A DNA stretch of 64,000 nt from positions 11,153 through 75,152 of the forward strand of contig CAZIZI010000002.1 in the NCBI GenBank assembly GCA_964543765.1, written 5' to 3'. The position numbers and the translations under genes are program-made. Positions 527 to 22,748 of the stretch are shown in pieces; the stretch's first letter is position 1, and the number at the start of each line of letters is the position of its first letter. This DNA comes from an uncultured Thermodesulfobacteriota bacterium (GTDB lineage: Bacteria > Desulfobacterota > B13-G15). The notes under the pieces were generated by a model, which did not search any database, was not told where the DNA came from, and saw nothing but the letters and a program-made list of their open reading frames with translations.

Positions 527-1306
527 ATGACTCACCATTATCAAAACATTTTATATGAAATAAAGGATCAGGTTGCTAGAATCGTGATTAACAGGCCTCC
601 TTATAACGTGTTAGATATACCCACAATGCGCGAGATGGTAGATGCTTTAAAGGATGTAAGGGCTCGTCAGAAGGAGGTGAAGGTTCTGCTTATTACCAGT
701 GCAGGTGAGAAGGCCTTTTCCACTGGTGTGGACGTGAAGGATCATATGGGTGACAAGATGGAAGAGATGTTAGAGGTCTTTCATGATATTTTTCGAGTTA
801 TGGCGACCCTGGAGATTCCTACGGTGGCGGCGGTGAGGGGACACGTATTAGGAGGAGGTTGTGAGGTGGTTATGTTCTGTGATATGGTAATAGCCAGCGA
901 ATCGGCCAAGCTCGGACAGCCCGAGATAAAAGTAGGGGTTTATCCTCCGGTTGCGAATTCTTATTTGCCGAGGATTATACCGATGAAAAAGGCCATGGAG
1001 TTAATCCTTACCGGTGACGTGATCTCGGCCAGAGAAGCCGAAAAGTTGGGTCTCGTTAACGTGGTGGTACCCGATGATAAGTTTGAGGAAGAGGTGGAGA
1101 AGTTCCTTAAGAGGCTTACTGAAAAGAGCGGAATAGTGTTGAGGATTACCAAGAGGGCCATTTTAGCCAGTTTAAATGTTGATTTTGAAACCGCCCTTCA
1201 AAATAACGAATTGATTTATAAATACGCCTTGATGAAGACCCATGATGCTAATGAAGGACTTGAAGCATTTGTGCAAAAGAGGCAGCCACAATGGAAGAAC
1301 GAGTAA
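527..1306 (+). CDS. enoyl-CoA hydratase/isomerase (crotonase) family protein
   Basis: 259 aa. Crotonase-fold motifs (AAVRGHVLGGGCEV, oxyanion-hole region). RBS aaaggaggg upstream of the ATG. Confidence 0.85.
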   Translation: MTHHYQNILYEIKDQVARIVINRPPYNVLDIPTMREMVDALKDVRARQKEVKVLLITSAGEKAFSTGVDVKDHMGDKMEEMLEVFHDIFRVMATLEIPTVAAVRGHVLGGGCEVVMFCDMVIASESAKLGQPEIKVGVYPPVANSYLPRIIPMKKAMELILTGDVISAREAEKLGLVNVVVPDDKFEEEVEKFLKRLTEKSGIVLRITKRAILASLNVDFETALQNNELIYKYALMKTHDANEGLEAFVQKRQPQWKNE

Positions 1307-2076
1307 TCACCGTAGGCATTGATGTGGGATCTATCACTACTGAAGCCCTTGTTTATGAACCACAAAGGGGAATCCTCGGGTATTCGATACTTCTTACCGG
1401 GGGTTCGAGTTATGAAGCGGCTTCTTTAGCTTTAGAAAAGGCTTTGATATTTTCAGGGATTAAGAGGGATGAGGTTAAGAGGATAGTAGCTACCGGTGCT
1501 GGACGAGGGATAGTTGATTTTGCTCACAAAAAAGTCACGGAGATAACTTGTTTGGCCCGAGGGGTTCATCACCTCTTTCCGGAAGCGAGGACCGTCATTG
1601 ACATTGGCGGACAGGATACCAAGGTTATAAGGATTAATGAAAAAGGGCAAGTCGTGGAGTTTGATATGAACGACAAATGTGCCGCGGGGACCGGCCGGTT
1701 TTTAGAAGTTATGGCAAGAGCTTTAGGAGTAGAACTTGATAAAATGGGAGAGATATCCCTTCGGGCCAAAAAGGACTTAAGCATATCCAGCATATGCACC
1801 GTTTTTGCTGAAAGTGAAGTAGTCTCGCTGGTCTCTCAAGGCGAACAGGTAGAGGAAATACTCCGAGCAGTTCATAAGGCCATAGCGAAAAGAACCGTTG
1901 GGCTCCTGGAGCGCATAGGTGGAGCCAACCCCCAAGTGGTGATGACCGGAGGTGTGGCGAAGAATATTGGCGTTGTGAGGGCATTGGAAGAAGAGATCAA
2001 AATGCCTTTGACGGTTTACTTTGAGCCACAGATAGTATGCGCTTTGGGAGCCGCCCTTTTGGCCCAAGAGGCTTAA
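1291..2076 (+). CDS. CoA-substrate-specific enzyme activase (BadF/BadG/BcrA/BcrD / HgdC family ATPase)
   Basis: 261 aa. N-terminal ITVGIDVGSITTEALV actin-like ATPase motif and DKCAAGTGRFLE, as in HgdC/BcrAD activators. Overlaps the crotonase gene by 16 nt. Confidence 0.8.
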   Translation: MEERVITVGIDVGSITTEALVYEPQRGILGYSILLTGGSSYEAASLALEKALIFSGIKRDEVKRIVATGAGRGIVDFAHKKVTEITCLARGVHHLFPEARTVIDIGGQDTKVIRINEKGQVVEFDMNDKCAAGTGRFLEVMARALGVELDKMGEISLRAKKDLSISSICTVFAESEVVSLVSQGEQVEEILRAVHKAIAKRTVGLLERIGGANPQVVMTGGVAKNIGVVRALEEEIKMPLTVYFEPQIVCALGAALLAQEA

Positions 2077-2077
2077 G

Positions 2078-3004
2078 ATGTTTTTAAAAAGGCTCAAGGA
2101 AAGGCTTTCAAAGTCACAGATGAACTTTTTTAATAAACTAAAAGGAGTTTTAAATTCTTCTCGAGTCTTAAATGCCCATCTATGGGAGGAGCTTGAGGAA
2201 ATCCTCATCGAATCGGATATAGGGGTTAAAGCCACGCAGGAGCTTATAAAAGAGCTTCAAGAGGAGGCGAGGAAAAGAGGCATAAAAGAAGTCTCCGAGC
2301 TTTATGAGGTTTTGAGGGGACTTTTGATCAAGCTGTTAAAGCCCTATGAAGCCCCCTTTGAACTTAAGGATAGGAAAAAACCGATGGTTGTACTCTTTGT
2401 AGGGGTAAACGGGGTTGGGAAAACCACCACCTTGGCCAAATTAGCCTATAGGTACACTTCACAAGGCAAAAAGGTGATGGTGGCTGCAGGTGACACCTTT
2501 CGAGCAGCTGCTATTGAGCAATTGGAGATATTGGCCAAACGGGCTGGAGCTTCCCTTATAAAACACCAACCAGGTTCTGATCCCGCTGCGGTAACTTATG
2601 ATGCTCTTTCTTCAGCAATGTCAAAGGGCTATGATTTGCTTTTGATAGATACAGCTGGAAGGCTCCATACGAAGGAAGGGCTCATGGAGGAGGTCAAAAA
2701 GATAAAAAGGGTTTTGAGGAAGATAGATCCCGAATTCCCTCAAGAGACCCTGCTTGTCCTTGATGCCACAAATGGTCAAAATGCCCTCATTCAAGCCAAG
2801 ACCTTTCATCAAGAAGTAGGTATTGACGGGATTGCCCTTGCCAAATTGGATGGTACTGCAAAGGGGGGTATAATCGTAGCAATTGCAAAAGAGCTCGGCC
2901 TTCCCATAAGATTTATAGGGATAGGGGAAGACCTTGAAGACTTAACGGATTTCTCAGCTGAAGCCTTTATAAAGGCGCTTTTGCCTACCTTTAACGGTAA
3001 TTGA
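2078..3004 (+). CDS. ftsY: signal recognition particle receptor FtsY (short form, NG domain only)
   Basis: 308 aa. [11 protein letters not shown]-loop, DTAGR and LDGTAKGG motifs of SRP GTPases. Start is 2 nt after the upstream stop. Confidence 0.9.
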
Positions 3005-3005
3005 G

Positions 3006-3479
3006 ATGAAAAAGACCCTTGAAGACGCAAAAAAAATAGTGGCTCAGAACAGAAAAGCCCGGAGCCAATATTTTATCGAAGAGACATACGAGGCTGGAAT
3101 AGTGCTACAGGGGTCTGAGGTCAAGGCCCTCCGAGAGGGAAGAGCGAGTCTAAAAGACGGATATGCTCAGATAGAGAACGGGGAAGTTTATCTTTTAAAC
3201 GTTCATATAAGCCCTTATGCCCACGGGAATCGATTCAATCACGATCCCTTAAGGCCCAGGAAATTGCTTCTTCATAAAAGGGAGATAAAAAAAATTATAG
3301 GAAAGGTCCAACAAAGAGGGTATACCCTGATACCTTTGAGCATTTACTTTCGGCAAGGAAAAGCGAAGGTGGAACTGGCTTTAGCCAGAGGTAAGAAAGT
3401 ATACGATAGGCGAGAAGAACTGAAACGAAAAGCCCTTGAAAAGGAGTTTGAAAGGGATTATAAAAGATTTAAGCTCTAA
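3006..3479 (+). CDS. smpB: SsrA-binding protein SmpB
   Basis: 157 aa with the typical SmpB sequence. Sits immediately 5' of the tmRNA gene (classic smpB-ssrA linkage). Confidence 0.9.
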
Positions 3480-3484
3480 GAAAG

Positions 3485-3832
3485 GGGGGCGAAAAGGGTT
3501 CGACGGGGGTAAGGAGAAAGGAGAAAGCATGCCGAGGTCCCACTCCTCGTTAAACAGTGGGGTAAACACAAGTGCCGACTCTTATGAGTATGCCTTGGCT
3601 GCCTAAGTAGCAGCCACGTCCTATGAGATTAGCTCATGGGTCTCATAGGGCGTTATGAACATGAGCTAAGCCCTTGCTGAGGCTCATAGGCAAGGGTGAT
3701 ACTAGATGAGCTAGTCAAGAAGCAGTCCTGCCTGTGGGACGCTTCTTGGCGAAAGTTAAACACAGGCTAAGCATGTAGATGTCCCTTTCGAATTACCCTC
3801 GGACGCGGGTTCGATTCCCGCCGCCTCCACCA
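3485..3832 (+). ncRNA. ssrA: tmRNA (ssrA), ~348 nt. The tag ORF GCC GAC TCT TAT GAG TAT GCC TTG GCT GCC TAA (3574-3606) encodes A-D-S-Y-E-Y-A-L-A-A.
   Basis: 5' GGGGGCG...GGUUCGACGGGG and 3' GGACGCGGGUUCGAUUCCCGCCGCCUCCACCA (tRNA-Ala-like acceptor/T-arm with G3:U wobble and CCA). Internal ...YALAA* tag reading frame. Confidence 0.9.
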
Positions 3833-3913
3833 AATTTATCGTTGACGAAATATTCTTAAAATTGTTAAATATTGCCAATGGATTTTCCTAAAATCGAACG
3901 TTTTTGAAAAAAA

Positions 3914-3940
3914 CTTTCTCCTGAGGAGAAAGAATTTTTA
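3914..3940 (+). terminator. rho-independent terminator downstream of ssrA
   Basis: Perfect 8-bp stem ctttctcc/ggagaaag with a 3-nt loop, followed by aattttta. Confidence 0.6.
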
Positions 3941-3967
3941 CTATTTTTTCTTTTCCTTCCCAAACCT

Positions 3968-6935
3968 GTGACAATAGATTTGCTCAGTTCAGCCACCGGT
4001 ATTCTAGTAACTCGTATTTTGAACGTGATGGAAAAATTTAAAAGGAGGGGGTTTGTCCTTGAAAGGAAAGATTTAGGGCGAGGAGTATATGCGATTAAGG
4101 ATTCTTTGAGATGGAGGGAAGCGAAAGACTCACTCTCTTCTGAAGAATTTTCCCTGTTTGTGGAGCGTTTGACAAATTTTTATGAGCAGAAAGATACAAG
4201 AGACGAAGAAACGAAAATAATTTTAGCAGAGTTATATAAATACACTTCGATTAACTTAGAACGTTTAGAGATTATAAAAGAAGTAGCCGATTTGTTTAAT
4301 AAAGGTCCTAATAAATTAAAAGCTGTTGAATACTATGATTGCATTATTAAATATTTTGAAAAGAAAGAACCTCGTACCGAAAAAGAAATTGAGCTATTTC
4401 TGGAAAGTATTATAGCAAAAACTTTTACATTGATGCATAAAATGGCAGCTCAACAGCAGATTGACCTATTAAAAAAAGCAAAAGATATAGCGGAGAAAAA
4501 TAATCTTTTTGAGAAGTTAGCTTTAATAAGCTTACGTTTAGCGAGAGCTTACCAGGATCTTGGTTTATATCAGGAATCTTCCAAATTTATTGAAAAATTC
4601 ATCCGGTTCTCAAAATATATTGAAGATATTAAACGTATAAAGTTGGCTTCCCATTGTTTGAGTGAATATTATGTTTGGAAAGGCAGATTTAAAGAAGCTA
4701 TCAGTTGTTATGAAAAACTAATAGGCAATATTGAAGAGTTCGAAGATGATGATAACGCTCTTATGGCAACACAGTTAATAGGTTTTACTCATGTGTTATG
4801 TGGTAGAGTTTCCCGTGGATTAGGAATGATTGAGGCAGTGATGAACAAGGCCCGCAGCTTAGGTTATGAACAAGTTGTTAATTATTGTCATCAAGCATAT
4901 GCCATATCTTTTTTAACATTACAAAAAATTGAGGAAGCGAAACCCCATGTTGAGGTTCTTTTGTCGTTTCCGGAAGAGGTTTTGGGTGACATTCTCTATT
5001 GGGCTGTTCTGATTCACAAGGCTTACATTTTGTGTCTTGAAGGGGATTTGGAGAGTTCATTTTCGCTTTTGAAAAAGGCGATGGAGTTTCAATTTAAGAA
5101 AAACAGAATTTTTACTCCCTATCCGTGGCTGTTTGAGACAGTTCGCATCTTGGAGAGCAAAGGTTTTTGGGATCAGGATATAAATTTGGAGAGGATGATT
5201 CAGCGCTTTATGGAACTGGATGATGTTTATATTCGTGGTGTAGTCCTGCGATATAGGGGTTTAAAATTTTTAGAAAATGGAGATGAGCGAGCTTTAGGTT
5301 GTCTTCTGAGCAGTGAAAGGTATTTGAGATATGTCGGGGCGGAGGTGGAATTAGCTAAAACAAGACTCTGGTTGGGCAAGTATTATCTGGCTAAAAATGA
5401 GGTAAAGAAGTCAAAACCTTACTTAGAAAAGGCGTGGGAGGTATTTTCTGCAGTTCAATCATCCCTTTTCCCTCCAGAGTTAATAAGTTTAGTTTCTCCT
5501 CAACAACACGCTCAAGCGATTATCAATAGAATAATAAAACTCACCGAAAACCTGGGAGGCGGTAAAGATGCCCTTTCTTTTTTGGAAGAGGTTTTAAACA
5601 CAGCCATGGATATTACCTTAGCTATGAGGGGTAGCATTTTGAGAAATATTCAGGAGGATTTGACCATTATAGTGAGCAGAAATGTATATCCCGAGACATT
5701 TTGGCAGGTGGTTTTAAAACTTATTTGATGGAGGCCGTTTTAAGAGGAGCGGAGGTTGTGAAGAGGGCGAAGGAGAGCGAGAAGGGCCCCTTTTTGATCA
5801 TACCAATGAAAGTTAGTGGTAAAAGTTGGGGATGTCTTTACTTGGAAGGAAGGGTTGATAACGAGGATTTTTCGCCTGATATTGTTCTGTTTGTAAAGAT
5901 GTTATGTGTTCAAGCAGCATTGGTTTTAAATGCTCTAACCTTACAAGAAGAGTTTGAGAAACAGCAACAAATCCTGACTCCTGAATTTCCTGAGGATGAA
6001 ATTTCCATAATCGGAGAATCGCCAGCTATAAAGAGGGTAATAGAACAAATAAAACAAGTAGCACCAACGGATGCAACGGTTTTAATTTTAGGAGAAACGG
6101 GCGTTGGAAAAGAGCTTGTAGCGCGTACTATACACGCTAAAAAGTACTCGGAGAAATGGGCCTTTTATAGCGGTTAACTTAGCTGCTATTCCCCAAGAGC
6201 TTATCGCGAGTGAGCTTTTTGGCCATGAGAGGGGAGCTTTTACAGGGGCTTATGAAAGGCAAAGAGGATTACTCGAACTTGCAGACGGGGGGACTGTGTT
6301 TTTTGATGAGATCGGAGATTTGCCGTTGGCAATTCAAGTAAAACTCCTAAGAGTGTTAGAGGAAGGGGTTTTTACAAGGCTTGGAAGTGCAAAACCTATA
6401 AAATCGAATTTTCGCATTATTGCTGCTACGAACAAGAATTTGGGGGAAGAAGTAAAAAAGGGTAACTTTAGACAAGATCTTTTTTATAGGTTAAATGTGT
6501 TTCCCATTTATATTCCCCCTTTAAGAGAGAGGAAGGAGGATATAATTCCGCTTGCTTTTTATTTTTTAAAAAGTTTAGCGAAAAGTATGGCAAAAAATCC
6601 GAAACATTTCCAATTTAGAATTGAGCAAATTATTAAATTATCATTGGCCGGGAAATGTAAGAGAATTGAAGCACGTCATCGAAAGAGCTGTTATTTCATC
6701 CAGCGGTTCAACTATAAACTTTGTATTTGATATTTCTTTGAATAAAACACAAGTCGAATCAAAGGAGGTTGTAAAAACCCTCGCCGAAATAGAAAAGGAG
6801 CATATAGAAAAGGTTTTGAGTTTGACCGGTTGGCGCGTGAGTGGCACGAAAGGAGCGGCTAATTTATTAGGAGTAAAACCCTCCACTCTTAGATTTAGAA
6901 TGAAAAAACTAGGTATAACACGTCCTTGCGTTTAA
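3968..6935 (+). pseudogene. sigma-54-dependent transcriptional activator with a long N-terminal TPR-like helical sensor, GAF, AAA+ and Fis-type HTH domains. Interrupted by at least 3 frameshifts (ORF pieces 3968-5728, 5701-6177, 6296-6730, 6621-6935).
   Basis: The GAF domain is split across the 3968 and 5701 ORFs. AAA+ motifs: GESPAIKRV...GETGVGKEL / (frameshift) / [11 protein letters not shown]...[13 protein letters not shown]...[14 protein letters not shown]...VRVIAATN / (frameshift) / [19 protein letters not shown]-terminal HTH AANLLGVKPSTLRFRMKKLGI. Restoring one A in gagaaatggg gives ...[11 protein letters not shown]. Confidence 0.75.
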
Positions 6936-7005
6936 AATTTAAAAAATTTGGCAAAATTTTGCGCCTTTTTTAAATTACCAGGAATTAAAGGATAAAAATT
7001 TTATG

Positions 7006-7020
7006 TGGCACGATTGTTGA
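7006..7020 (+). promoter_or_regulatory. candidate sigma-54 (-24/-12) promoter for the 7061 operon
   Basis: TGGCACGattgTTGA matches TGGCACG-N4-TTGC spacing with a C-to-A change at -12. Lies ~40 nt upstream of ATG 7061 and its RBS aaggcggaaggagg. The 12-bp palindrome gcaaaattttgc at 6951-6962 is a possible activator site. Confidence 0.45.
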
Positions 7021-7060
7021 TAATTCTTCGTGTAAAGTAAGGCGGAAGGAGGTTTTCCTT

Positions 7061-9649
7061 ATGCAAAAATATAGAAAGCTTCTTGAACCCCATTATATAG
7101 GGAAGGTAAGGACGAGAAATCGCATTATAAAAACTGGTGCGGCCATGAACTATTGGCATAAGGATGATACGAAGATGGACCCTAAGGCTCTATCCTTTTA
7201 CGAAAATCTTGCCCGAGGAGGTGTTGGTCTTCTTGTGGTGGAGTCGCCTATTGTGGATTATCCCTTGGGAGGCCGATGGTCCAATAGGTATAGATTGGAT
7301 GAAGACATTTTTATCGAAGGAATGGCCCAACTTGTAGAGGTTATGCACAAGCACGGTTGTCCTACTTTCATGTTAATGTGGCACGATGGGCCTTGGCAAA
7401 ATCCCTTATTTCCGGATGTTCCTCCCTTATACGATGGTCCCCCCGTAGGTTCGTATCCCTTAAACCTTCCTACTCCGCTTGATTTCCATAGGGACATCCC
7501 TAGGCAGTTAAGTGTTGCGGAGATAGAGGACATTATAGATAAATTCGCATCCGCTGCCCTTAGAGCCAAAAAGGCTGGATTTGATGGAGTGGAGATAAAT
7601 GCGGCAAGTAGTCATCTTTTTCATAATTTTCTCTCGCCCTTTTGGAATCGAAGAGAAGATGAATATGGAGGTAATACCGAAAACAGAGCAAGGATTTTAA
7701 TCAGAACGGTAAAGGAAATCAAAAACAGAGCAGGTAAGGATTTCCCGGTTTCAGTCATTATAAACGCCATAGAGATGGGAAGGGCTTTGGGAATGGATGA
7801 TAATCAATGTCTTACCTTTGAAGAGGCAAAGAAAATAGCCCTTCTTTTACAGGAGGCAGGGGTTGATGCTATCCATGTGCGAAGTCATTGGCTCGGGTAT
7901 CACGTAGGCGGGTTTTTACCAGATTATCTCTTTTACCCGGAGCCACCTGTTAGGAAGTTTCCGGAGCTCTATAATTGGAGGGAGAGAGGAAGAGGAGCTA
8001 ACATTTATTTGGCAAAAGAATTAAAGAAAATCTTATCCATTCCCATCATAGTTGTGGGTAAGATCGATCCTCCGCTTGGAGAACAAATTCTTCAACGGGG
8101 TTACGCTGACTTTATAGCGATGAATCGGCGACTTCTCGCTGATCCAGAACTTCCTCGAAAATTGGCTGAAGGAAGAGAGGATGAAATAGCTCCCTGTACT
8201 GCCTGTGGAACTCGTTTGGATCAAAGCAAAGGGATGCAAAGGCGGTGTAGGATAAACGCCACAATGGGCAAAGAAGAGTTCCTTATTAAAAAAGCCGAGA
8301 AGAAAAAAGAGTTCTCATTGTGGGAGGAGGGCCTGCGGGAATGGAAGCATCAAGAGTAGCGGCTTTAAGAGGACATGAGGTGATATTGGTGGAAAAGGAA
8401 AATAGGTGGGTTATTGCCCTTAGCTTCCTTGATAAAAGGATTAGAAATAGAGGATTTGTCAGCTATAATAAAGTACTACAAAATAACTTTAAAAAATTAG
8501 GAGTTAAAATAATCACAAAAAAGGAAGCTGATACAAATTTCGTTAGCACTATAAAACCAGACGTAATCATTTTAGCATGTGGTGGTAAATTTCGGACTCC
8601 AGAAACTATTACTTCAAAAAAGAAAAAGATTATAACTGCTCCAGAACTTCATAAAAAAAGCGAAAATATTCCTTAGAATATTCGGCCCCAGATTTTTAGG
8701 ATGGTTAACAAGGTTTTGGCTCCCTATGGGCAAAAAGGTTGCCATAGTCGGAGGATCACTTCAAGGATGCGAGCTTGCAGAGTTTCTCGTGAAAAGGAAT
8801 AGAGAGGTTACAATAATTGAAGAATCAGGAAAAATAGGGGAAGGAGTAGTTGATTTTCGTTTAGCTTTACTATTGGATTGGTTCTCAAAAAAGGGAGTAA
8901 AGATTTACAAAAATGCAAAAGTCGAAGAAATTAATGATGAAGGTGTTGTAATAAATCAAAATAATCAGCAGATATTAGTTCCTGCTGATACGATTATTAT
9001 ACTTTCTCCTTTATTACCAAATATCGAATTATACAATTCATTTAAAAGATATGTAAAAGAAATATACGCTATAGGTGATTGTAAAGAACCAAGTTTAATA
9101 GTTGATGCAATACACCAAGCTTGGGAAATTGTAAGACATACCATGACCATAGAAGATCTTCAAAGAAAAATAGTAGAACTTGAACAAAAAATAAAAGAAT
9201 TAGAAAGTAGAGTTCAGATTTTAGAGGATATTAATGAGATAAAAGAACTACAACGTCGATATGTAGATGCTTTAATATGCACTGAATGGGATGAATGTGC
9301 TGAATGTTTTTCGGAGGATGCGGTAGTTGATGTATACTTGCATAAACCTGTGCATGGAAAGGAAAATATTCGTCGGTGGTTTAAAGAAGAACTTTCCAAA
9401 ACTCATGCAGGGAAAGAGGGAGATTTTGTAGTGCATCCCATTGTAAAGGTTGAAGGTGATAAAGCCAAAGGAAGGTGGTTGCTTTATATGATGTACATGT
9501 ATCCGCGGACAGGTCAATCATTGTTTTGGGTTCAGGGGTATTACAAAAACGAATATGTGAGGGAAAAAGGGAAATGGAAGATAAGCCTTATGACTTGGAC
9601 TGAGCGTTTAGGATTACCTGGAGGAGGTCCCCCTACTGGTCTTTGGTAA
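7061..9649 (+). pseudogene. NADH:flavin oxidoreductase (OYE TIM-barrel + 4Fe-4S + FAD/NAD(P) domains, as in 2,4-dienoyl-CoA reductase or BaiCD/BaiH enoate reductases) fused to a C-terminal coiled coil and a SnoaL/NTF2-like domain. Fragmented into ORFs 7061-8359, 8320-8676 and 8726-9649.
   Basis: OYE motifs in the first ORF. GGGPAGMEAS FAD-binding GxGxxG at 8320. Second Rossmann GKKVAIVGGSLQGCELAEFL at 8726. NTF2-like C-terminus (RRYVDALICTEWDE...GKWKIS). Lesions: A6 run ~8296-8301, in-frame TAG 8674-8676, A5 run ~8730-8735. Confidence 0.75.
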
Positions 9650-9656
9650 TGGTGAG

Positions 9657-11703
9657 ATGGGAGAGCTAAAAGTTTTCATTAACGGTAGGGAAGTTAAGGG
9701 TAAGGAAGGGAGTACCATTTTAGAGACGGCTCTCGGAGCGGGAATTTATATTCCCTATTTATGTCATCATCCTAACCTCCCTCCCATAGGGGAGTGTGGA
9801 TTATGTGTGGTTCGAGTTAATGGGATGGGGTTTGTTAATGCATGTGATACTTTAGTTGAGGAAGTGATGAAGATTGTAACCGAAGACGAGGAGATTGCGT
9901 CTCTTAGGCGAGAAAGGCTTACCGGTTTATTGATGTCACATCCTTTGGAATGCATAGGCTGTTGGAAATATCTCAAATGTGAACTTCAAGCTTTAAAGCA
10001 ATACGTCGGAATTAATCGAGTTGAGGTTTTAAAAGGGCGTCCGAGGTTCATAGAGATTGAGGAAGATAATCCTCTCTTTGAATATGATCCACATAAATGT
10101 GTTCTTTGCAAAAGATGTGTTAGAGCCTGTAAAGACTTGAGGGGATTGGGGATTTTAGAGGTAAAGGAAAAAGACGGAGTCCGATACATATTTACTCGTT
10201 CGGATTTACCGCTGGCTGAGGAGGGATGTAAGTTTTGTGGTTTATGTGTAGAAGTATGTCCTACAGGAGCTCGGAGGGATAAGGTAGAAATAAATACAAT
10301 GGAAGATAATAGAAAAAGGACATTACTTCCTTGTAAATACAATTGTCCACTTGAAATAGATATACCGCTTTTCGTTCGACTCATTAAAAGGGGGATTACG
10401 ATAAGGCCTTAAGAGTTATAAAAGAAAAAACTCCTTTGGTTGAAGTGTTAGGTCATATTTGTACCCATCCCTGTGAGGATGCTTGTAGGCGTAATCATTT
10501 AAGTGAATCCATTTGCGTTCGAGAACTGAAGAAATTTGTCGCTCAAAGGGCTTTTTATACCTCTTCAGTTAGGAAAGACAAGGGAAAAAGGGTCGCTATA
10601 ATTGGCTCCGGCCCAGCTGGTTTAACAGCGGCTTATTTTCTTAGGGTTTTAGGATATAGGGTTACCCTCTTTGAGCAGATGGCATTTTTGGGAGGTATGT
10701 TGAAGATAGGGATACCTTTTTACAGGTTACCTCGGCGGGTAGTGGATAAGGAGATTGAAGAAATTCTCAAATTGGGCATTAAGGTTGAACTAAAAAACGC
10801 GTGGAGAATTTGGAAGACCTTTTGATCAAAGGTTTTTCGGCAGTAATAATAGCCATAGAAACCCAGCGGCCTATAGTGCCGGATTTAGTGAGGTGGAGGA
10901 AAATTAAAGATGTTCACTTAGGGCTTGATTTTTTACGAGCTTTTAACTTGGGTGAAGGAGTAAAATTAAGGCAAAAAGTTGCGATAATCGGAGGAGGTGC
11001 TAGTGCTTTCGATTGCGCAAGGGTCGCTTTAAGACAAGGAGCTTCGGAGGTCCATATCTTTTGTTTGGAAGAGTTTTCCGAAATGCGCGTTAATAAAGAG
11101 GACCTTGAAGAAGCACTTTTGGAAGGAGTAGCCATTCACAATCATAAAGCGCTTGTTCATTTAGATGAAGTATCTGATAAGCTCCAATTGGTTTTCAGAG
11201 ATGTGGAAAGTTTTGAATTTGATGAATTGGGAAGGCTCGACCTGAAAACCATTCCGGGATCAGAAAGATCTTTTTTCCTTCGAAGGAGTGATATTTGCCA
11301 TAGGACAGATTCCGGAAGTTCCCTTGGGATTCAAGGTTAAGCTTAAGCCATGGGTACCATTGAGGTAGATCCCTTTAGCCTTATGACTTCTAGAGAAGGA
11401 ATTTTCGCTTGTGGTGATGTGGTGACTGGGACAAGGTCAGTAGCAGAGGCCTCTGCGATGGGAAGAAGAGCAGCTTTAAGTGTGGACGAGTTTTTGGGAG
11501 GAGATGGTTTGAAGGAATTAAAAGATCTTCAATATGTGCCTACATTCTTTTCCGAAAAGAAGGGAGGATTTGCATATTTAAGAAGACCCAAAGGGGAGTT
11601 TAGTATAAAAGAGGCCACTTATGAATCAAGTCGTTGTTTGGAATGTGACCTTAGGTTCCAACTAATGGAGGTGAAGTTCTGGCCAGCATATGGAAAGCCA
11701 TGA
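9657..11703 (+). pseudogene. 2Fe-2S ferredoxin + 4Fe-4S dicluster + GltD-like FAD/NAD(P)H oxidoreductase fusion (NfnB / glutamate synthase small-subunit-like). Fragmented into ORFs 9657-10412, 10436-10825, 10801-11340 and 11350-11703.
   Basis: CxxC...C 2Fe-2S motif, two CxxCxxCxxxCP motifs, then the GltD signature CTHPCEDAC and AIIGSGPAGL. Frame breaks at G5 (~10391-10395; adding one G gives ...IKRGDYDKALRVIKEK...), at A5/A6 (~10789-10794), at a T6 run (~11270) and at a G3 run (~11350). Confidence 0.7.
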
Positions 11704-13139
11704 AGCTCATTGAGACCGAAGTAGCCATTATAGGAGCTGGAGCAGCGGGACTTGCAGCTTCAATCGCTGCAGCAGAAAGGGGGGGTATCGGTCGCAGTTT
11801 TCGAAAAAGGAGCCACCACCGGCGGGACAGCTAATATGGGAATGGGATTGTTTGCGGTCGAAAACCGTCACCAGAGATTTCGGCAGATGGGACCAAGTCG
11901 CGATGAAGCTTTTAAGGTTTTTATGGAGTTTATCCATTGGCGTGTGGATGCCCGTTTGGTTAGGGTTTATATCGATAGATCCGGCGACACGATCCATTGG
12001 CTCGAAAACATGGGCGTTGAGTTTTTAGAGCCTATGGCTTATTTCCCGGGAGGATGGCCTACATGGTACATAGTGAAACCTGGCGGTTCTCCCGGTTGTG
12101 CTGCTAATATGTGTAAAGCTATGACTTATAAAGCAAAGTCACTTGGTGTAAGTTTTCATTTTAAAACACCCGCTAAAAGATTGATAAGGAAGGGTAATAG
12201 AATTATAGGATTTATCGCAGAAACACCAGAAGGTGAAGAGCTTTTAGTAAGAGCAGGTACGGTTATTATTGCTACAGGAGGGTTTGGAGACAATCCCGAT
12301 TGGATAAAGAAATATACCGGATACGAACACGAAAAGGATCTCATTACCTTCAGGGTTTCAGGTCTTAAAGGTGACGGAATAAGGATGGCGTGGGAAGTGG
12401 GCGCTCTTTCCACTCCTATGAACATGCAACTCATTTATATTGTACCAGGCGAAGTTCATCCTAAATTAGCGGAGGCTTTTAGGCAACCTCACTTATTAGT
12501 CAACTTAAGAGGGGAGAGATTTGTTAACGAAGGAATAATATTTAATTCAACGTTTATAGGGAACGCAATATCGCAACAACCCAAAAGAATAGCCTTTATG
12601 ATCTTTGATGAGAAAATTAAAGAGCACATGAAGAATGTGGGTTTAGATTTTATTCATGTTCCTTTTCCGTATTTTAAAGTAGAGGACTTCGATGATTCGT
12701 TTTTTGATTCGTTAAAGAGATGTAAAGAGACTCTATTTGTGGCTAATTCTATCTCAGAACTGGCTCAAAAAGCGGGCATAGACGAGAAGGGGTTAGCGAG
12801 GCAAGTGGAAGAATATAACGAATTTTGTAGTTGCGGGTTTGATCCCGTTTTTAACAAAAACCATCGTTATTTAAGGCCTATAAAAAACCTCCTTTTTATG
12901 GCGCGAAGCTTATGCCCGCATCTTACGAGAGCTTGGGAGGTATAAAGATAAACTACAAAATGGAAGTAATAGGTGAAGATTATAATCCATTGAGAGGGCT
13001 ATATGCAGCAGGTACAGATGTTAATTCCATAAATGGTGATTCCTATGTTTTCATTTTGCCTGATAATACCATGGGGTTCGCGGTGAATTCTAGTCGAATA
13101 GCAGGGGAAAACGCTGCTGATTTTGTAAAAGGCAGATGA
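11701..13139 (+). pseudogene. FAD-binding dehydrogenase of the fumarate reductase/succinate dehydrogenase flavoprotein (FAD_binding_2) family, 3-oxosteroid 1-dehydrogenase (KstD)-like. Fragmented into 11701-11832, 11752-12945 and 12912-13139.
   Basis: N-terminus MKLIETEVAIIGAGAAGLAASIAAAERG breaks at a G7 run (aaagggggggtatc, ~11786-11792). C-terminal piece GLYAAGTDVNS...RIAGENAA is typical of the family. Second break at T5 (cctttttatg, ~12893-12897); T6 restores ...NLLFYGAKLMPASYE.... Confidence 0.7.
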
Positions 13140-13274
13140 TATAAAAATTCCCGTCCCCTTTCTAGCTTTTACAATTTTTCTCCTAAGAGGCGGTATAGAC
13201 GATTTAAAAGAAAAGGCAATAAAATTTTAAAAAATCCATGTTGCTCATTATACGAAAGCAGGGGGAGTTAAGTT

Positions 13275-14585
13275 ATGTTCGAAAGGTTGAGCGAACGCCT
13301 ACAGCTTGTTTTCAATAAATTGAGGAAAAAGGGCAAATTAACGGAAGAGGACGTGATGGGGGCTTTAAGGGAAGTTCGGTTGGCCCTTCTCGAGGCGGAT
13401 GTGCATTATAAAGTGGCCAAGGAATTTCTCGAAAGAGTAAAAGAAAGGGCAGTGGGGCAAGAGGTTATGAAAAGTCTAACCCCTGTTCAGCAGGTCATAA
13501 AAATCGTAAAAGAAGAGCTTGTCTCTCTTATGAGTGGTGATACTTCCCTTAATTTAAAAGGAAACCCTGCGATTTTGATGCTCGTAGGTCTTCAAGGCTC
13601 AGGAAAGACCACCACTGCAGCGAAGCTTGCCTTAAAGTTTAAAAGAGAAGGTTATAGACCTGTAGTTTTACCCCTCGATTCGAGAAGGCCTGCTGCTTCG
13701 GAACAGCTTGAAAAATTGGCGGAAAAGATAGGGGTTGTGTGTTATAAAAGTTCCTCTTCTCCTTTTGAACTTTTCGAAAGCGTTCTAAAGGAAACGAGAC
13801 AAAAGGGCTTTTCTCCTCTGATAGTTGATACTGCCGGGACTTTACATATAGAGCGGGAGCTTATGGAGGAGCTAAGGGAGTTAAAAGAAAAGATTAAACC
13901 GAATGAGGTGCTCCTTGTAGTTGACTCCATGACCGGACAAGATGCCGTGAACGTGGCTCAAGGGTTTGAGAAAGGAGTAGGAATTACCGGCATTATATTG
14001 ACGAAACTCGATGGCGATGCTCGAGGAGGAGCAACCCTTTCCATTAAAGCCGTGACCGGAAAACCCATAAAACTCATAGGAATCGGCGAGGGGCTTGAAG
14101 CACTTGAACCATTTTATCCGGACCGGATCGTTTCGCGCATTTTAGGCATGGGAGATGTGCTCACTTTGATAGAGAAGACCCAAAGAGTAATAGAGGAAGA
14201 GGAAGCAAAAAAACTGGAGAAAAAGCTCAAAGAAGACCGCTTCGATTTCGAGGATTTTCGAGAATATTTGCGGATGTTGAAGAAGCTGGGGGATTTGGAA
14301 AGTTTGTTAAAATTAATCCCAGGCCTTCCCAAGGTTCTTAAAAATGGGGTAAAAGTGGATTATACTAAGATGCGTAGGATGGAAGCTATAATAAATTCGA
14401 TGACTATTGAAGAAAGACGAAAACCGCATATAATAAACGCTAGTCGGAAAAAAAGAATTGCGAAAGGTAGTGGCACAAGCATACAGGAAGTTAATCAATT
14501 GTTGAGGCAATTTGAGATGATAAGAAAACTGGTGAAGGAAATGAAGACAACGAAAGGAAGAAGATGGTTTGGGGTTTTTCAGTAA
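13275..14585 (+). CDS. ffh: signal recognition particle protein Ffh (SRP54)
   Basis: 436 aa. NG domain (GLQGSGKTTT, DTAGT, LTKLDGDARGG) and methionine-rich M domain. Confidence 0.95.
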   Translation: MFERLSERLQLVFNKLRKKGKLTEEDVMGALREVRLALLEADVHYKVAKEFLERVKERAVGQEVMKSLTPVQQVIKIVKEELVSLMSGDTSLNLKGNPAILMLVGLQGSGKTTTAAKLALKFKREGYRPVVLPLDSRRPAASEQLEKLAEKIGVVCYKSSSSPFELFESVLKETRQKGFSPLIVDTAGTLHIERELMEELRELKEKIKPNEVLLVVDSMTGQDAVNVAQGFEKGVGITGIILTKLDGDARGGATLSIKAVTGKPIKLIGIGEGLEALEPFYPDRIVSRILGMGDVLTLIEKTQRVIEEEEAKKLEKKLKEDRFDFEDFREYLRMLKKLGDLESLLKLIPGLPKVLKNGVKVDYTKMRRMEAIINSMTIEERRKPHIINASRKKRIAKGSGTSIQEVNQLLRQFEMIRKLVKEMKTTKGRRWFGVFQ

Positions 14586-14598
14586 AAGGAGGAAGGAG

Positions 14599-14847
14599 AT
14601 GGTGAAGATCAAACTTTCAAGGTATGGTGCCCGACATCGTCCATTTTACCGGATAGTGGTGGCCGATGCGCGGTCTCCAAGGGATGGTAAGTTTATCGAG
14701 AAGCTCGGGGTTTATGATCCTTTACAGGATCCTCCTCTTGTGGAGGTCGATAAAGAGAGATTAACTCAGTGGCTCCATAAAGGAGCTCAATTGACAGATA
14801 CGGTTGCGGGGCTTTTAAAAAAGGCGGGAATCAGATTAGAGGCATAA
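14599..14847 (+). CDS. rpsP: 30S ribosomal protein S16
   Basis: MVKIKLSRYGARHRPFYRIVVADARSPRDGKFIEKLGVYDP. Start taken at the internal ATG after SD aaaggaggaaggag (the ORF track extends to 14569). Confidence 0.9.
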   Translation: MVKIKLSRYGARHRPFYRIVVADARSPRDGKFIEKLGVYDPLQDPPLVEVDKERLTQWLHKGAQLTDTVAGLLKKAGIRLEA

Positions 14848-14865
14848 AAATTTAAAAGGAGGAGG

Positions 14866-15105
14866 ATGATGCAGCTTAAGGATCTCATCGAAACGATTGC
14901 TAAATCTTTGGTGGATCATCCAGAACAAGTGAGGGTTACGGAAATTCAAGGGGAGAAGACTTCGGTGATCGAACTTTCGGTTGCTAAAGAGGATTTGGGC
15001 AAAATAATAGGTAAACAAGGACGTACCGCCAGAGCTATGAGAACCATATTAAGCGCGGCTTCAAGCAAAAATAACAAAAGGGTAGTCTTAGAGATCATTG
15101 AATAA
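14866..15105 (+). CDS. KH-domain RNA-binding protein (YlqC/UPF0109 family)
   Basis: 79 aa with [20 protein letters not shown] motif. Conserved position between rpsP and rimM. Confidence 0.75.
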
Positions 15106-15622
15106 GGAAGACGCCCTTGAGGATTTCATCCTAATAGGCAAGGTCCTGCGACCACATGGTAGAAAAGGGGATCTGAGGATTAAATATTTTAATCCCGATC
15201 CCCTCTTTATTTTAAATTACAGCCGATTATTCCTTTTGGATCACAAAAGGGGTATCTTCCGATCATTTAAGGTAAAACAGGTTTTGGTAAATAAGGGAAA
15301 CGTGATCGTGGCTTTAGAAGGCATTAACGATCGAGATGCTGCCGAAAGGTGGTCACAAAGTAGCATTTACGTCCATCGCGATGATCTTCCGCCTTTAGAA
15401 GAAGGAGAGTATTATTACGTGGATATAATTGGACTCAAGGTCTTTAGTGAAGAAGGTAAGTATGTGGGAGAAGTGGTGAATATATTTCCCACCGGTAGTA
15501 ATGATGTTTATGAAATAAAGGGCCCAGAGAGAGAAATAATGTTACAAGCTTCAAATGATGTTATTAAGGAAATTAACCTGAAAGAACGCAAGATGATCGT
15601 TAAAATCCCCGAGGAGTATTAA
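15098..15622 (+). CDS. rimM: 16S rRNA processing protein RimM
   Basis: 174 aa. N-terminal [24 protein letters not shown]-barrel signature. Conserved operon position. Confidence 0.85.
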
Positions 15623-15625
15623 AAA

Positions 15626-16354
15626 ATGGTCTTTTATGTATTGACGCTTTTCCCAGAGATGGTGCTTCAACCATTAAAGTTTAGCGTATTAGGTAAGGCC
15701 ATGGAAAATGGGGTATTTCGAGTTGAAGGGATTAATATCCGTGATTTTGCGCTTGATAAACATAAGACTACCGATGATTATCCCTATGGTGGTGGACAAG
15801 GAATGATAATGAAGCCGGAACCGGTAACGCGGGCTATAAAGTTCTTATTAGATCAAGATCCTAAAATTTGGTTTATATTGCTTACTCCCCAAGGCATATC
15901 TTTTTCTCAAAGCACTGCCCAAAGGCTTTCTAAATTTAAAAAATTGGCCCTTATTTGTGGCCGTTATGAGGGGATTGACGATAGGGTAAGGGGGTATGTG
16001 AACGAGGAGATTTCAATAGGGGATTATGTATTAACAGGAGGGGAGTTTGCGGCTTTAGTGATCATAGATTGTGTAGCCAGGCTTTTGCCGAACGCCTTAC
16101 ACCGAGCTGAATCTGCTCAAGAGGAGTCCTTCAGCGAGGAGCTGCTGGAGTATCCCCAATATACGCGTCCCCCCCTTTTCGAAGGAAAGGGCGTTCCTGA
16201 GGTCTTACTTTCGGGCAATCATAGGGAGATAGAAAATTGGCGTAGGAGACAAGCCCTACTTAGGACTTGGGTAAGGCGTCCTGATCTTTTAAAAAGGGCA
16301 AGATTAAGGGAAGAAGATAAAAGGTATTTATCGGCATTAGAAGATGGATACTGA
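15626..16354 (+). CDS. trmD: tRNA (guanine37-N1)-methyltransferase TrmD
   Basis: 242 aa. VLTLFPEM...YPYGGGQGMIMKPEP...LICGRYEGIDDRV SPOUT/TrmD motifs. Confidence 0.9.
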   Translation: MVFYVLTLFPEMVLQPLKFSVLGKAMENGVFRVEGINIRDFALDKHKTTDDYPYGGGQGMIMKPEPVTRAIKFLLDQDPKIWFILLTPQGISFSQSTAQRLSKFKKLALICGRYEGIDDRVRGYVNEEISIGDYVLTGGEFAALVIIDCVARLLPNALHRAESAQEESFSEELLEYPQYTRPPLFEGKGVPEVLLSGNHREIENWRRRQALLRTWVRRPDLLKRARLREEDKRYLSALEDGY

Positions 16355-16925
16355 GAGGGTTTTTTTAGCGCTTTTGCATTGGCCCGTTTATGACCGGAAT
16401 GGCAACGTGATCACCACCGCTTTGACCACAATTGATATTCATGATTTAGGAAGGTTGTGTAAAACTTATGGCCTCGGTGGCGTTTACATAGTAACCCCTT
16501 TATCCTCACAGATTGAGCTTGGGGAGAGGATGGTCAAGTATTGGCGTGAGGGACCGGGAGCTTCCTTTAATCCATTGAGGAAGATGGCTCTGGAGAATAT
16601 AAAGTTTAGCCCTACCTTGGAGGATGTGCTCTCCGACCTTCAAGCAAAGTTCAAGGATAGGCCTAAAACAATTGCTACAAGTGCGAAAAGATGGCCGAAG
16701 ATCATAGGATACCGGGCTTTAAAAGAAGAAATGAAAAAGGGGGGGCTTTTCCTTTTGATCTTTGGAACTGGATGGGGACTCACCTGGGAATTAATAATGT
16801 CCTGTGATATGGTACTGGAACCGATAGAAGGAAAAGGGTATAATCATCTTTCAGTCCGCACAGCAGCGGCGATCATTATTGATAGGTTGTTTGGGAGGTG
16901 TGAAGATGAAAGAAACGATTCGTGA
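16344..16925 (+). CDS. uncharacterized SPOUT-like (alpha/beta-knot methyltransferase-like) protein inserted between trmD and rplS
   Basis: 193 aa. C-terminal [10 protein letters not shown]...[16 protein letters not shown] resembles the SAM-binding knot of TrmH-like enzymes. Assignment is tentative. Confidence 0.45.
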
Positions 16926-17250
16926 GGTAGAAAAGGAATACTTAAAATCAAATATTCCGGAGTTTTGGCCAGGGGATACGGTGAGGGTGTATTATCGTTT
17001 CCCAGAGGGAGAGAAGGAAAAAACCCATATGTTCGAAGGGGTTGTCATAAGAAAAAGAGGCGGAGGGACAAGGGGTACTTTTACGGTGAGAAAGGTCTCT
17101 TATGGGGTAGGGGTAGAGAGGATATTTCCCCTTAATTCTCCCAATATCGAGAAGATCGAAATTGTGAGGCGTGGGAAGGTAAGAAGGGCTAGGCTTTATT
17201 ACCTCAGAGAAAGAACCGGAAAAAGTGCTAGGATCAAAGAACGAAAGTAA
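16906..17250 (+). CDS. rplS: 50S ribosomal protein L19
   Basis: [13 protein letters not shown]... typical L19. Start at the ATG after SD gggagg (the ORF track extends to 16879). Confidence 0.9.
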
Positions 17251-17854
17251 ATCCTTATGTACCCCGGATAAATGCCCAGGTTTTGTCTATTGTCAGGAGG
17301 GTCTGTGTGCTGGGATCGATGAGGCAGGACGAGGGCCGTTGGCCGGTCCGGTAGTGGCAGCTGCTCTTATCATCAATCCTAAGGAACTTGTTTCCGAGAT
17401 AAGAGATTCCAAAGCCTTGAGCCCGAAACTTCGGGAAGAGCTTTACGCTTATCTTATTTCCCGAGCTCGAGCTTGGGCCATTTCTTCAGTAGGGCCGAGG
17501 ACTATCGAAAGGATAAACATACTTAATGCCTCTTTACGGGCTATGCGTCAAGCGGTTCAAAAACTCAAGTTAAGGCCAAAGATCCTCATAGTAGATGGCC
17601 CTTATGCCATTCCCAAACTGGATATCCCTCAAATTCCCCTTATCGATGGGGATGTTCGATGCCCACTCGTTGGGGCTGCCTCAATTTTGGCCAAAGTCAC
17701 CCGGGATCGAATTATGGATCATTATCATAAGCTGTTTCCCCAATACGGTTTCGATCGCCACAAAGGTTATCCTACCGAAGAACATCGCAAAGCCCTAAGG
17801 CAATTCGGCCCCTCTCCCATTCATAGACGGAATTTTAAGGGCGTAGGTGAATAA
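17225..17854 (+). CDS. rnhB: ribonuclease HII
   Basis: [18 protein letters not shown] and DSK motifs. The exact start is uncertain (overlaps the rplS end). Confidence 0.85.
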
Positions 17855-18224
17855 AAGGAGACTGGAAGAAGAGGCTGAGAGATTGGCGGAAGTATTCCTT
17901 AAGAGATCCGGCTATACAATTCTTCAAAGGTGGCCAAATAGACCTAATCGCCGAAGAAAGGGGGATACTCGTATTTGTAGAGGTTAAAGCTAGAAGATCT
18001 AAGGTGTATGGTTTACCTTATGAGGCGGTTACCCGGAGAAAAATTAAAAAATTAACTCAAGTAGCCCTTCATTATTTACAAAGACATGGATTATATGAAG
18101 ACATGGATTATATGGGAAAGTACCAGTGAGATTCGACATAGTAAGCATAGAGCTTTATCGAGGTGAGCCAATTATAGGAATAATCAAAGGGGACTTTTTT
18201 TTTGGAATAAACCGGGTATTTTGA
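17849..18224 (+). pseudogene. yraN: YraN-family (UPF0102) endonuclease, disrupted
   Basis: GTG start overlapping the rnhB stop. ...LEEEAERLAEVFLKRSGYTILQR | frameshift | GQIDLIAEERGILVFVEVKARRSKVYGLPYEAVTRRKIKKLTQVALHYLQRHGLY | 17-bp tandem duplication | VPVRFDIVSIELYRGEPIIGIIKGDF.... Confidence 0.65.
18083..18116 (+). repeat. 17-bp tandem duplication inside yraN (gacatggattatatgaa / gacatggattatatggg)
   Basis: Two adjacent near-identical 17-nt units. Deleting one restores the YraN frame (...LQRHGLYGKVPVRFDIV...). Confidence 0.8.
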
Positions 18225-22544: not shown

Positions 22545-22748
22545 TTACTTTTCGACCTTTTCCCCTCCATCAGCTGCCGTCAAACCAAGCTCAACTGGAA
22601 GTTCCCCAAAGGCCAAGGCCTTGATTGCGGTGAACCAACCTTCCACCGTTTTAATAAGAGGATAAATCACTACAAGCCCTAAAAAACCTCCAACTAAAAC
22701 TCCCACCATAATTCCCAATGCTATCTTTAATCCTAACATCTCCCTCAC
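22545..22748 (-). CDS. small hydrophobic membrane protein (67 aa), function unknown
   Basis: Strong SD (aaggaggtga) 6 nt upstream of the ATG on the minus strand. One long TM segment. Confidence 0.5.
   Translation of the reverse strand: MREMLGLKIALGIMVGVLVGGFLGLVVIYPLIKTVEGWFTAIKALAFGELPVELGLTAADGGEKVEK

Follow-up and report, generated by a model that had tools for sequence, protein, structure and literature searches.

Gene content of the ssrA–ffh interval

The window analyzed here is a 64-kb stretch of contig CAZIZI010000002.1 from an uncultivated hot-spring bacterium (Thermodesulfobacteriota), and coordinates are positions within this window, on the plus strand unless stated otherwise. Between the intact tmRNA gene (ssrA) and the intact ffh gene lies a variable block of 9.4 kb, which begins 11 nt past the ssrA 3′ end and holds the remains of a five-gene flavoenzyme module that is very probably decaying. 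The plus-strand open reading frames (ORFs) of the tmRNA–ffh interval (3878-13139) form 13-14 stop-free pieces spread over all three frames, confirming the clustered fragmentation downstream of ssrA reported in an initial annotation of this DNA. The block is slightly lower in GC (0.37-0.42) than its flanks (0.44), and an Rfam scan of positions 3300-13400 returned no match besides the tmRNA.

Pfam matches on the pieces comprise TPR/GAF/Sigma54_activat/AAA_lid/HTH_8, then Oxidored_FMN + Pyr_redox_2 followed by SnoaL_4, then Fer2_4/Fer4/NADH-G + Fer4_20 + Pyr_redox_2, and FAD_binding_2, in agreement with the domain content described initially. These domains belong to five genes, which encode a TPR/GAF sigma-54 activator, an OYE-FAD flavoenzyme, a SnoaL-like protein, a ferredoxin–GltD (Fd-GltD) fusion and a FAD_binding_2 reductase. 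The initial annotation counted four genes, with OYE-FAD and SnoaL fused. We count five because SnoaL is a separate gene of 168-170 aa in every intact relative, and the apparent fusion is the product of a 15-nt deletion at 9138/9139 that took the OYE-FAD stop codon. Likewise, the module does not start at the GTG at 3968, as first proposed, but at the activator ATG at 3878, codon 10 of that gene having changed from TGG to TGA.

Table 1. Features of the ssrA–ffh interval and lesions of the window relative to the sister lineage (L020-L023) and other relatives
Feature	Position	Strand	Basis
tmRNA (ssrA), intact, left anchor of the variable locus	3485-3832	+	ARAGORN; Rfam RF00023, 215.6 bits
Variable ssrA–ffh segment	3844-13260	.	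blastn breakpoints vs L026, L024; gene calls; remnant analysis
Pseudogene, 1019-aa sigma-54 enhancer-binding protein, five lesions	3878-6935	+	Pfam; frameshift-aware alignment; motifs
Nonsense TGG>TGA, activator codon 10; Trp in sister, L008, L007	3905-3907	+	alignments
-1 frameshift, T4 here vs T5 in intact sister	5699-5702	+	alignments
+1 frameshift, A5 here vs A4 in intact sister, directly past Walker A	6139-6143	+	alignments
-1 frameshift, A5 here vs A6 in sister	6568-6572	+	alignments
-1 frameshift, A6 here vs A7 in sister	6592-6597	+	alignments
Perfect palindrome GCAAAATTTTGC preceding the promoter, with similar sequences in L008, L009, L007	6951-6962	+	sequence comparison
Sigma-54-type -24/-12 element TGGCACGATTGTTGA, ~40 nt upstream of OYE start	7006-7020	+	sequence comparison
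Pseudogene, 696-aa OYE(FMN)+FAD/NAD(P) Fe-S flavoenzyme	7061-9138	+	Pfam; homologues ~700 aa; alignment; PDB, NCBIfam neighbors
Missense TGT>CGT (C385R) in CxxCxxC...C motif; Cys in sister, L008, L019	8213-8215	+	comparison
-1 frameshift, A6 here vs A7 in sister	8303-8308	+	alignments
5-nt deletion, TGATT present in sister	8402/8403	+	alignments
-1 frameshift, A6 here vs A7 in sister	8491-8496	+	alignments
+1 frameshift, A7 in window and L002, A6 in L001, L003, L004 and sister	8653-8659	+	alignments
15-nt deletion (TATATAAAGGAGGTG in sister) removing OYE-FAD TAA stop and SnoaL Shine-Dalgarno (AGGAGG)	9138/9139	+	alignments
SnoaL_4 (NTF2-like) gene, 168-aa ORF intact, ribosome-binding site lost	9143-9649	+	Pfam; alignment
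Pseudogene, ~672-688-aa ferredoxin (2Fe-2S + 4Fe-4S, HoxU/NuoG-like)–GltD-like NAD(P)H flavoprotein fusion	9657-11703	+	Pfam; NCBIfam; alignment to L019, L008
-1 frameshift, A4 here vs A5 in sister; window lineage only	10386-10389	+	alignments
-1 frameshift in A6 run, common to sister lineage	10792-10797	+	alignments
+1 frameshift at T-run; sister off frame by same amount modulo 3	11271-11276	+	alignments
-1 frameshift, AA here vs AAA in sister; window lineage only	11345-11346	+	alignments
Pseudogene, 479-489-aa FAD_binding_2 flavoprotein, two frameshifts	11700-13139	+	Pfam; NCBIfam; PDB; alignment to L008, L007
+1 frameshift, G7 here vs G5 in sister; frame needs G6	11779-11785	+	alignments
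-1 frameshift, T here vs TT in sister	12881	+	alignments
ffh, intact, right anchor of the variable locus	13275-14585	+	gene calls

Intact relatives and a half-broken sister lineage

A homologue search with a 432-aa OYE fragment retrieved OYE+FAD proteins of ~700 aa on contigs with whole modules, and the contig scan with the same fragment yielded relatives at <=78% identity. L008 (NCBI GCA_039803345.1) encodes a 1031-aa activator, a 696-aa OYE-FAD, a 170-aa SnoaL, a 688-aa Fd-GltD and a 489-aa FAD_binding_2 protein; L019 encodes a 696-aa OYE-FAD, a 168-aa SnoaL and a 672-aa Fd-GltD; and L009 also carries an intact module. Each fragment set in the window has full-length intact homologues in L008, L019 or L020, and the comparison with orthologous loci that the initial annotation recommended does reveal intact copies (those of L020 in part). 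L008, L009 and L007 possess an extra gene of 153-203 aa between SnoaL and Fd-GltD (203 aa in L008, 12668-13279 of that contig), which has a faint DAPG_hydrolase match and no NCBIfam match and is absent from L019, from the sister lineage described below and from the window.

The 90%-identity cluster of the window OYE fragment contains P0140 (UniRef A0A7C2NZS7, labeled candidate division WOR-3), a protein of 696 aa. Four assemblies (L020-L023) form a sister lineage that is ~96% identical to the window and syntenic with it (smpB, ssrA, module, ffh). The sister lineage has an intact 1019-aa activator, 696-aa OYE-FAD and 168-aa SnoaL. Its last two genes are worse damaged than those of the window, with nine lesions in Fd-GltD and eight in the reductase, including two stops and a 10-nt deletion. 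In Fd-GltD, the reading frame changes at one and the same A6 run (10792-10797) and at one and the same T-run in both window and sister, and all activator and OYE-FAD lesions are confined to the window lineage. A separate peculiarity of L022 (JGI 3300005278) is that, at the equivalent of 3900-3912, a T5>T6 and an A5>A6 change flank activator codon 10 with a net shift of +2; this change is absent from L020, L021 and L023 and represents either a rare variant or assembly noise.

Sixteen structural lesions in the module

We mapped the lesions with a nine-sequence DNA alignment (MAFFT --auto, 10-kb sequences) and with a custom frameshift-aware protein–DNA dynamic-programming aligner; plain tblastn of the intact proteins against the window reads through stops and masks the frameshifts. 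The window carries 16 structural lesions, namely 13 single-base indels, two longer deletions (5 and 15 nt) and one nonsense mutation (TGG>TGA), and, beyond these, a Cys>Arg missense change in the 4Fe-4S motif of OYE-FAD. Runs of A, T or G, 4-7 nt long, harbor 11 of the 13 single-base indels. Every gene has between two and five lesions of mixed sign, with the exception of the intact SnoaL ORF.

The activator retains 979/1016 identities with the intact sister protein in the frameshift-aware alignment. OYE-FAD, which is identical to P0140/L020 at 659/692 positions, has suffered four frameshifting lesions, the loss of its stop codon and the C385R substitution; its 4Fe-4S motif reads CTACGTC...C in the window, with the third cysteine being an arginine. 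The OYE start and ribosome-binding site (RBS) are kept. Four frameshifts interrupt Fd-GltD. The SnoaL ORF is identical to that of the sister at 166/168 positions. The statement that the deposited sequence encodes no functional product here is nearly right but a little too strong: SnoaL (9143-9649) remains open, though its RBS is lost and the activator is dead.

The initial annotation listed ten lesions, against the 16 that emerge from alignment to intact orthologues. Its sites near 8297, 10791, 11270 and 11790 are essentially correct, and the A3/4 change near 6150 is indeed a slip in an A-run, although at 6139-6143. Other sites need reassignment, since T5/6 near 12895 is T1 vs T2 at 12881, G3/4 near 11350 is AA vs AAA at 11345-11346 and G5 near 10393 is the adjoining A-run at 10386-10389. 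What had been described as a true in-frame TAG at 8674 is an out-of-frame stop after the +1 slip in the A7 run at 8653-8659, and the three population assemblies with A6 at this position read through it in a 435-aa ORF; the A5 site placed near 8733 is this same single slip. Seven lesions had escaped notice: the TGA at 3905, the T-run at 5699-5702, the A-runs at 6568-6572, 6592-6597 and 8491-8496, and the deletions at 8402/8403 and 9138/9139. The claim that each resolved junction maps to a 1-nt change in a homopolymer does not hold, given the 5-nt deletion, the 15-nt deletion and the nonsense substitution.

Long ORFs elsewhere in the 64 kb are unbroken. A search for hidden frameshifts in the other adjacent or overlapping same-strand ORF pairs of the window found none, all of them being separate genes with complete domains, and the observation that the long genes around the module are intact thus holds. 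Among homopolymer runs of >=5 nt, 9/93 in the module bear a lesion, compared with 0/359 in 44.7 kb of intact ORFs (Fisher p = 4.8e-7), and this clustering rejects a model of uniform homopolymer error.

The lesions recur in other population assemblies

An exact-match look-up of the ffh protein identified four further assemblies of the window lineage (JGI 3300008019, JGI 3300022546, ENA ERZ27245635 and Logan SRR7539624), which we designate L001-L004. Over 19-21 kb they match the window at 99.90-99.96% identity, no assembly being fully identical to it, and they show the same fragmented gene-call pattern. Base-by-base comparison established that 15/16 lesions are common to the window and all four assemblies. 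Three of the four carry extra lesions: GAA>TAA at 4205 and +G at 5255 are private to L001, TAC>TAA at 4552 occurs in L002 and L003, and +G at 8182 occurs in L002. We detected no indel inside the flanking genes of the four assemblies relative to the window, the sole flank indel being in an intergenic T-run at 18195. The run at 8653-8659, which differs in length among these assemblies (Table 1), holds a segregating and very recent lesion.

The contigs of ERZ27245635 are named k141_*, in the style of MEGAHIT. From this naming and from the usual practice of JGI and Logan, we presume the matching assemblies to be built from short reads. The fragments are already present as separate proteins in public protein collections. 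B. P. Hedlund is the listed investigator for the IMG metagenomes 3300005278, 3300005298 and 3300008019 (PMC9599585), and 3300005298 comes from an enrichment on corn stover carried out in situ at Great Boiling Spring (bioRxiv 10.1101/2022.12.01.518715).

Relaxed constraint and the probable order of decay

Selective constraint on the module is relaxed. Nei-Gojobori dN/dS between the window and L020 is 0.09 for nine flank genes pooled, compared with 0.27 for the activator, 0.20 for OYE-FAD, 0.60 for Fd-GltD and 0.44 for FAD_binding_2; the value for SnoaL is 0.07, from only 9 changes. The same pair differs by 27 indel events in the module and by one in the flank ORF interval, a frame-neutral event at the rimM stop/trmD junction. 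When amino-acid changes are polarized with the outgroups L008, L007 and L019, the activator has 15 on the window branch vs 4 on the sister branch (p = 0.0096) and OYE-FAD has 14 vs 8, which gives a pooled count of 29 vs 12 (p = 0.006). The lesion spectrum, mostly +/-1 slips in runs of 4-7 nt, is that of normal replication slippage without selection.

From the distribution of lesions among lineages we infer the following order of events. Fd-GltD would have been struck first, by two frameshifts common to the sister lineage: because both lineages share the frame switches at the A6 run and the T-run, their common ancestor probably lacked a working copy of this gene already, the A6-run lesion (10792-10797) presumably being ancestral to both and the T-run lesion (11271-11276) probably shared and ancestral as well. 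FAD_binding_2 would have followed in both lineages. Its lesion sites all differ, which suggests independent decay; in the G-run at 11779-11785, struck in both lineages (G7 vs G5), a shared first hit is conceivable. In the window lineage, the activator (the codon-10 nonsense mutation and four slips) and OYE-FAD (three slips, the 5-nt deletion, loss of the stop and Cys>Arg in the Fe-S motif) would have decayed next. The process appears to be still running, with population assemblies acquiring private nonsense and frameshift mutations, and its end point would be the clean block deletion found in a strain >99% identical to the sister lineage.

The Fd-GltD gene is also split in L007 (Logan SRR25243437), a distant relative in which the rest of the module is intact (13240-15306 of that contig; 508 + 143 aa). 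This split hints that Fd-GltD may recurrently be the first gene lost.

The ssrA–ffh junction is variable among close relatives

Among genomes 89-99.9% identical, the ssrA–ffh junction has three contents: the decaying module, a radical-SAM cassette and a 71-nt spacer. The latter two came to light through further ffh variants belonging to the same cluster at 90% identity (loci L024-L027). In L026 and L027, both flanks are 99.2-99.9% identical to L020 and the gap between ssrA and ffh measures only 71 nt (within the locus at L026 9554-10000); blastn homology of the window with L026 stops at 3843 and restarts at 13261. The L026 spacer contains colinear module remnants, among them 17 nt that match the activator 5′ end exactly, and the junction with ssrA-proximal sequence shows a 6-nt microhomology, TTTTTC. 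Because L026 groups with L020 (>99% identical flanks, nearer to each other than either is to the window) and because the window and L020 both have the module with shared lesions, the empty site is a recent deletion. L024 and L025 (~89-90% identical) instead carry, on the opposite strand, a 3.6-kb cassette comprising a radical-SAM gene and a gene for a 772-aa spermine-synthase-like protein (L024 6408-9785).

The block resembles tmRNA-adjacent islands in starting 11 nt past the ssrA 3′ end and in being replaced by alternative cargo or by nothing in relatives. A classical ssrA-integrated island would fit this boundary and the presence/absence polymorphism. However, the block contains no integrase, as the five module genes account for all of its coding capacity, and no k-mer of >=9 nt is shared between 3761-3980 and 12900-13400, where an ssrA-derived direct repeat was sought. 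On these two grounds we reject a classical ssrA island, and the empty allele is best explained by microhomology deletion rather than by site-specific excision.

Genuine decay and its alternatives

The initial annotation had offered, as one of two explanations, a low-coverage, error-rich stretch (e.g. long-read homopolymer miscalls) that falsely splits intact genes. The location of 11/13 single-base indels in runs of 4-7 identical bases matches the error mode of some platforms, and the unusual pair of run-length changes around activator codon 10 in L022 shows that some assembly noise exists. Yet 15 lesions recur in four non-identical assemblies, one of them with k141 contig names, and several lesions lie outside the homopolymer class (TGG>TGA, the 5-nt and 15-nt deletions, T vs TT and AA vs AAA), while none of the 359 runs in neighboring ORFs is affected. 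Moreover, the sister assemblies, which come from the same laboratory's metagenomes, hold frame-preserving lengths at those activator and OYE-FAD runs, and base-calling errors would yield neither the raised dN/dS, nor the excess of substitutions on the window branch, nor the lost Fe-S cysteine. An assembly or sequencing artifact is thus very improbable. We give still less credence to functional recoding or phase variation, in which the runs would be contingency tracts or sites of programmed frameshifting or transcriptional slippage, or the fragments would act as split subunits. Two runs are polymorphic, 8653-8659 (A6/A7) within the population and 11779-11785 (G7 vs G5) between lineages, and the promoter, the OYE start with its RBS and the SnoaL ORF are kept, as recoding would have it; but the two to five mixed-sign lesions per gene cut through domain cores (e.g. 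between Walker A and GAFTGA), the codon-10 nonsense mutation and the 5-nt and 15-nt deletions are not slips, the runs are only 4-7 nt long, selection is relaxed, and a strain close to the sister lineage has deleted the whole block without replacement. A phase-variable contingency locus, with a single long switch tract in an intact gene, does not match the multiple lesions and short runs seen here.

We conclude, with high confidence, that the locus represents the genuine, ongoing and stepwise decay of a dispensable accessory operon, whose broken genes are true pseudogenes. This verdict draws on the observed lesions, their reproducibility, their lineage distribution, the relaxed dN/dS and the deletion allele. 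It upholds the other explanation offered at first, a recently inactivated, decaying module with slipped-strand mutations, in view of the recurrent and segregating lesions, the relaxed dN/dS, the half-broken sister and the deletion strain. Several points weigh against it. The evidence consists of assembled contigs; several datasets share a laboratory and a spring system, and the samples are not fully independent; and the polarity assigned to the T-run at 11271-11276 and the G-run at 11779-11785 follows from parsimony only. In addition, dS between window and sister is 0.05-0.10 across all five module genes vs 0.10-0.24 in the nine flank genes (527-3479 and 13275-17854; pooled 0.158; Mann-Whitney p = 0.002). 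A block evolving neutrally since the split should diverge at least as much as flank synonymous sites, and this low dS is therefore not predicted by simple vertical decay; the block may have been exchanged by recombination after the lineages diverged. The module could then have been dead on arrival, a partly broken block moved between lineages by recombination into an ssrA–ffh hotspot. The module dS, below that of all flank genes but two, the three alternative contents of the junction and the fact that more distant relatives carry intact homologous modules at another locus argue for such a transfer, whereas the missing integrase, the lack of an ssrA direct repeat of >=9 nt and a GC content only slightly below that of the flanks argue against it. 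We regard this scenario as possible but unlikely, and it would alter the history of the block, not the conclusion that its genes are pseudogenes. Similarly tentative is the broader proposal that ssrA–ffh is an integrase-less exchange hotspot, through which a partly dead operon was passed by homologous recombination and is now being erased. If true, the order of loss (Fd-GltD first, with the activator, OYE-FAD and SnoaL kept in the sister lineage) would show which parts of the module can operate without the others.

Predicted regulation and function of the intact module

The activator comprises a TPR/MalT-like N-terminus, a GAF domain, an AAA+ domain with GETGVGKE (Walker A) and GAFTGA motifs, and HTH_8. 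It matches Sigma54_activat (Pfam, E = 2.5e-53) and has GAFTGA at 6233; its gene is disrupted in the window but whole in the sister. It shares with bacterial enhancer-binding proteins of the NtrC/NifA class the AAA+ GAFTGA domain, the C-terminal HTH_8 and a predicted -24/-12 promoter beside the target operon, and differs from them in having a TPR/MalT-like sensor of ~600 aa in place of a receiver and in lacking an equivalog match. This N-terminal region (3878-5700) is unusually long, contains no receiver domain and has the lowest GC of the window (about 0.34-0.37).

An element equivalent to the -24/-12 sequence of the window lies ~40-50 nt before the OYE start in L020, L019, L008, L009 and L007, and reads TGGCAYGAWNNTTGW across relatives; the -12 part of the predicted promoter is TTGA or TTGT, not TTGC. 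In intact relatives the activator gene lies ahead of this element, which would drive OYE-FAD, SnoaL, Fd-GltD and the FAD_binding_2 gene. The operon is predicted, from promoter and activator sequence, to depend on sigma-54, and the palindrome GCAAAATTTTGC is a putative activator-binding site (upstream activating sequence).

OYE-FAD, a flavoenzyme of ene-reductase type, belongs to the FadH/2-naphthoyl-CoA reductase (NCR)/BaiCD class. Its best PDB match is NCR (6qkg, E = 3e-70), followed by FadH, and the two-domain architecture and four-cysteine 4Fe-4S motif of FadH/NCR-type enzymes are complete in the sister and in the outgroups. Like FadH (1ps9), NCR, BaiCD and the long form of bilirubin reductase, it is a protein of ~700 aa with Oxidored_FMN + Pyr_redox_2 and CxxCxxC...C; it nevertheless scores far under all the NCBIfam equivalog cutoffs, and the window copy is broken, with one cluster cysteine replaced. 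NCBIfam returned no equivalog above cutoff for any module protein; we therefore claim no specific substrate and assign OYE-FAD to its superfamily only.

By NCBIfam, Fd-GltD is similar to electron-input proteins of the NADPH-dependent GltD type that have a HoxU/NuoG-like N-terminus, and it would serve as the NAD(P)H electron-input module of the operon. The FAD_binding_2 protein is of the soluble fumarate/urocanate reductase class, its nearest relatives being flavocytochrome c fumarate reductase and urocanate reductase, and its best named NCBIfam match, the vinyl phenol reductase VprA, is below cutoff. NCBIfam and PDB matches both place KstD as only a distant relative, and we rejected the designation KstD-like as an identity. 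Taken together, the intact module is probably a sigma-54-induced reductive flavoenzyme system.

Parallels and implications for annotation

Stepwise ("domino") pseudogenization and deletion of dispensable operons is known from Mycobacterium leprae, Salmonella Typhi, Shigella and insect endosymbionts. The locus resembles these cases in its many frameshifts and nonsense mutations per gene, mostly at short homopolymers, its relaxed dN/dS, the loss of one component and then of its partners, the eventual deletion and the polymorphism of lesions. It differs from them in that the decay takes place in natural populations of an uncultivated hot-spring bacterium, where half-broken, wholly broken and deleted stages coexist at 95-99.9% identity, the intact form is found only in more distant relatives, and the 64-kb window shows just one further pseudogene (yraN) rather than signs of genome-wide reduction. 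We consider it an ordinary, well-documented case of gene loss and not a new kind of system.

Positions 3878-13139 should be annotated as five pseudogenes, SnoaL being marked as an orphaned ORF, and neither as a dozen hypothetical proteins nor as an assembly error. The case also shows that life in this niche does not require the sigma-54 flavoenzyme module. Public metagenomes provide a natural time series of operon decay in one hot-spring population complex, with intact, half-broken, fully broken and deleted states, and this series could be used to study mutation spectra and deletion bias in thermophiles.

Other features of the window

A perfect sigma-54 consensus, TGGCACGACAGTTGC, lies on the minus strand at ~22779-22793 and precedes a hydrophobic ORF of 67 aa on that strand (22545-22748), which suggests that the organism still uses sigma-54 elsewhere. 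The only other pseudogene in the 64-kb window is yraN/UPF0102 (17847-18206), which is broken in the window lineage only. It has lost 17 nt near 17930, and at ~18065-18098 a 17-nt sequence (AAGACATGGATTATATG) is tandemly duplicated; neither lesion is a homopolymer change. L020 and L026 have an intact gene of 120 aa, and L024 has one of 112 aa.

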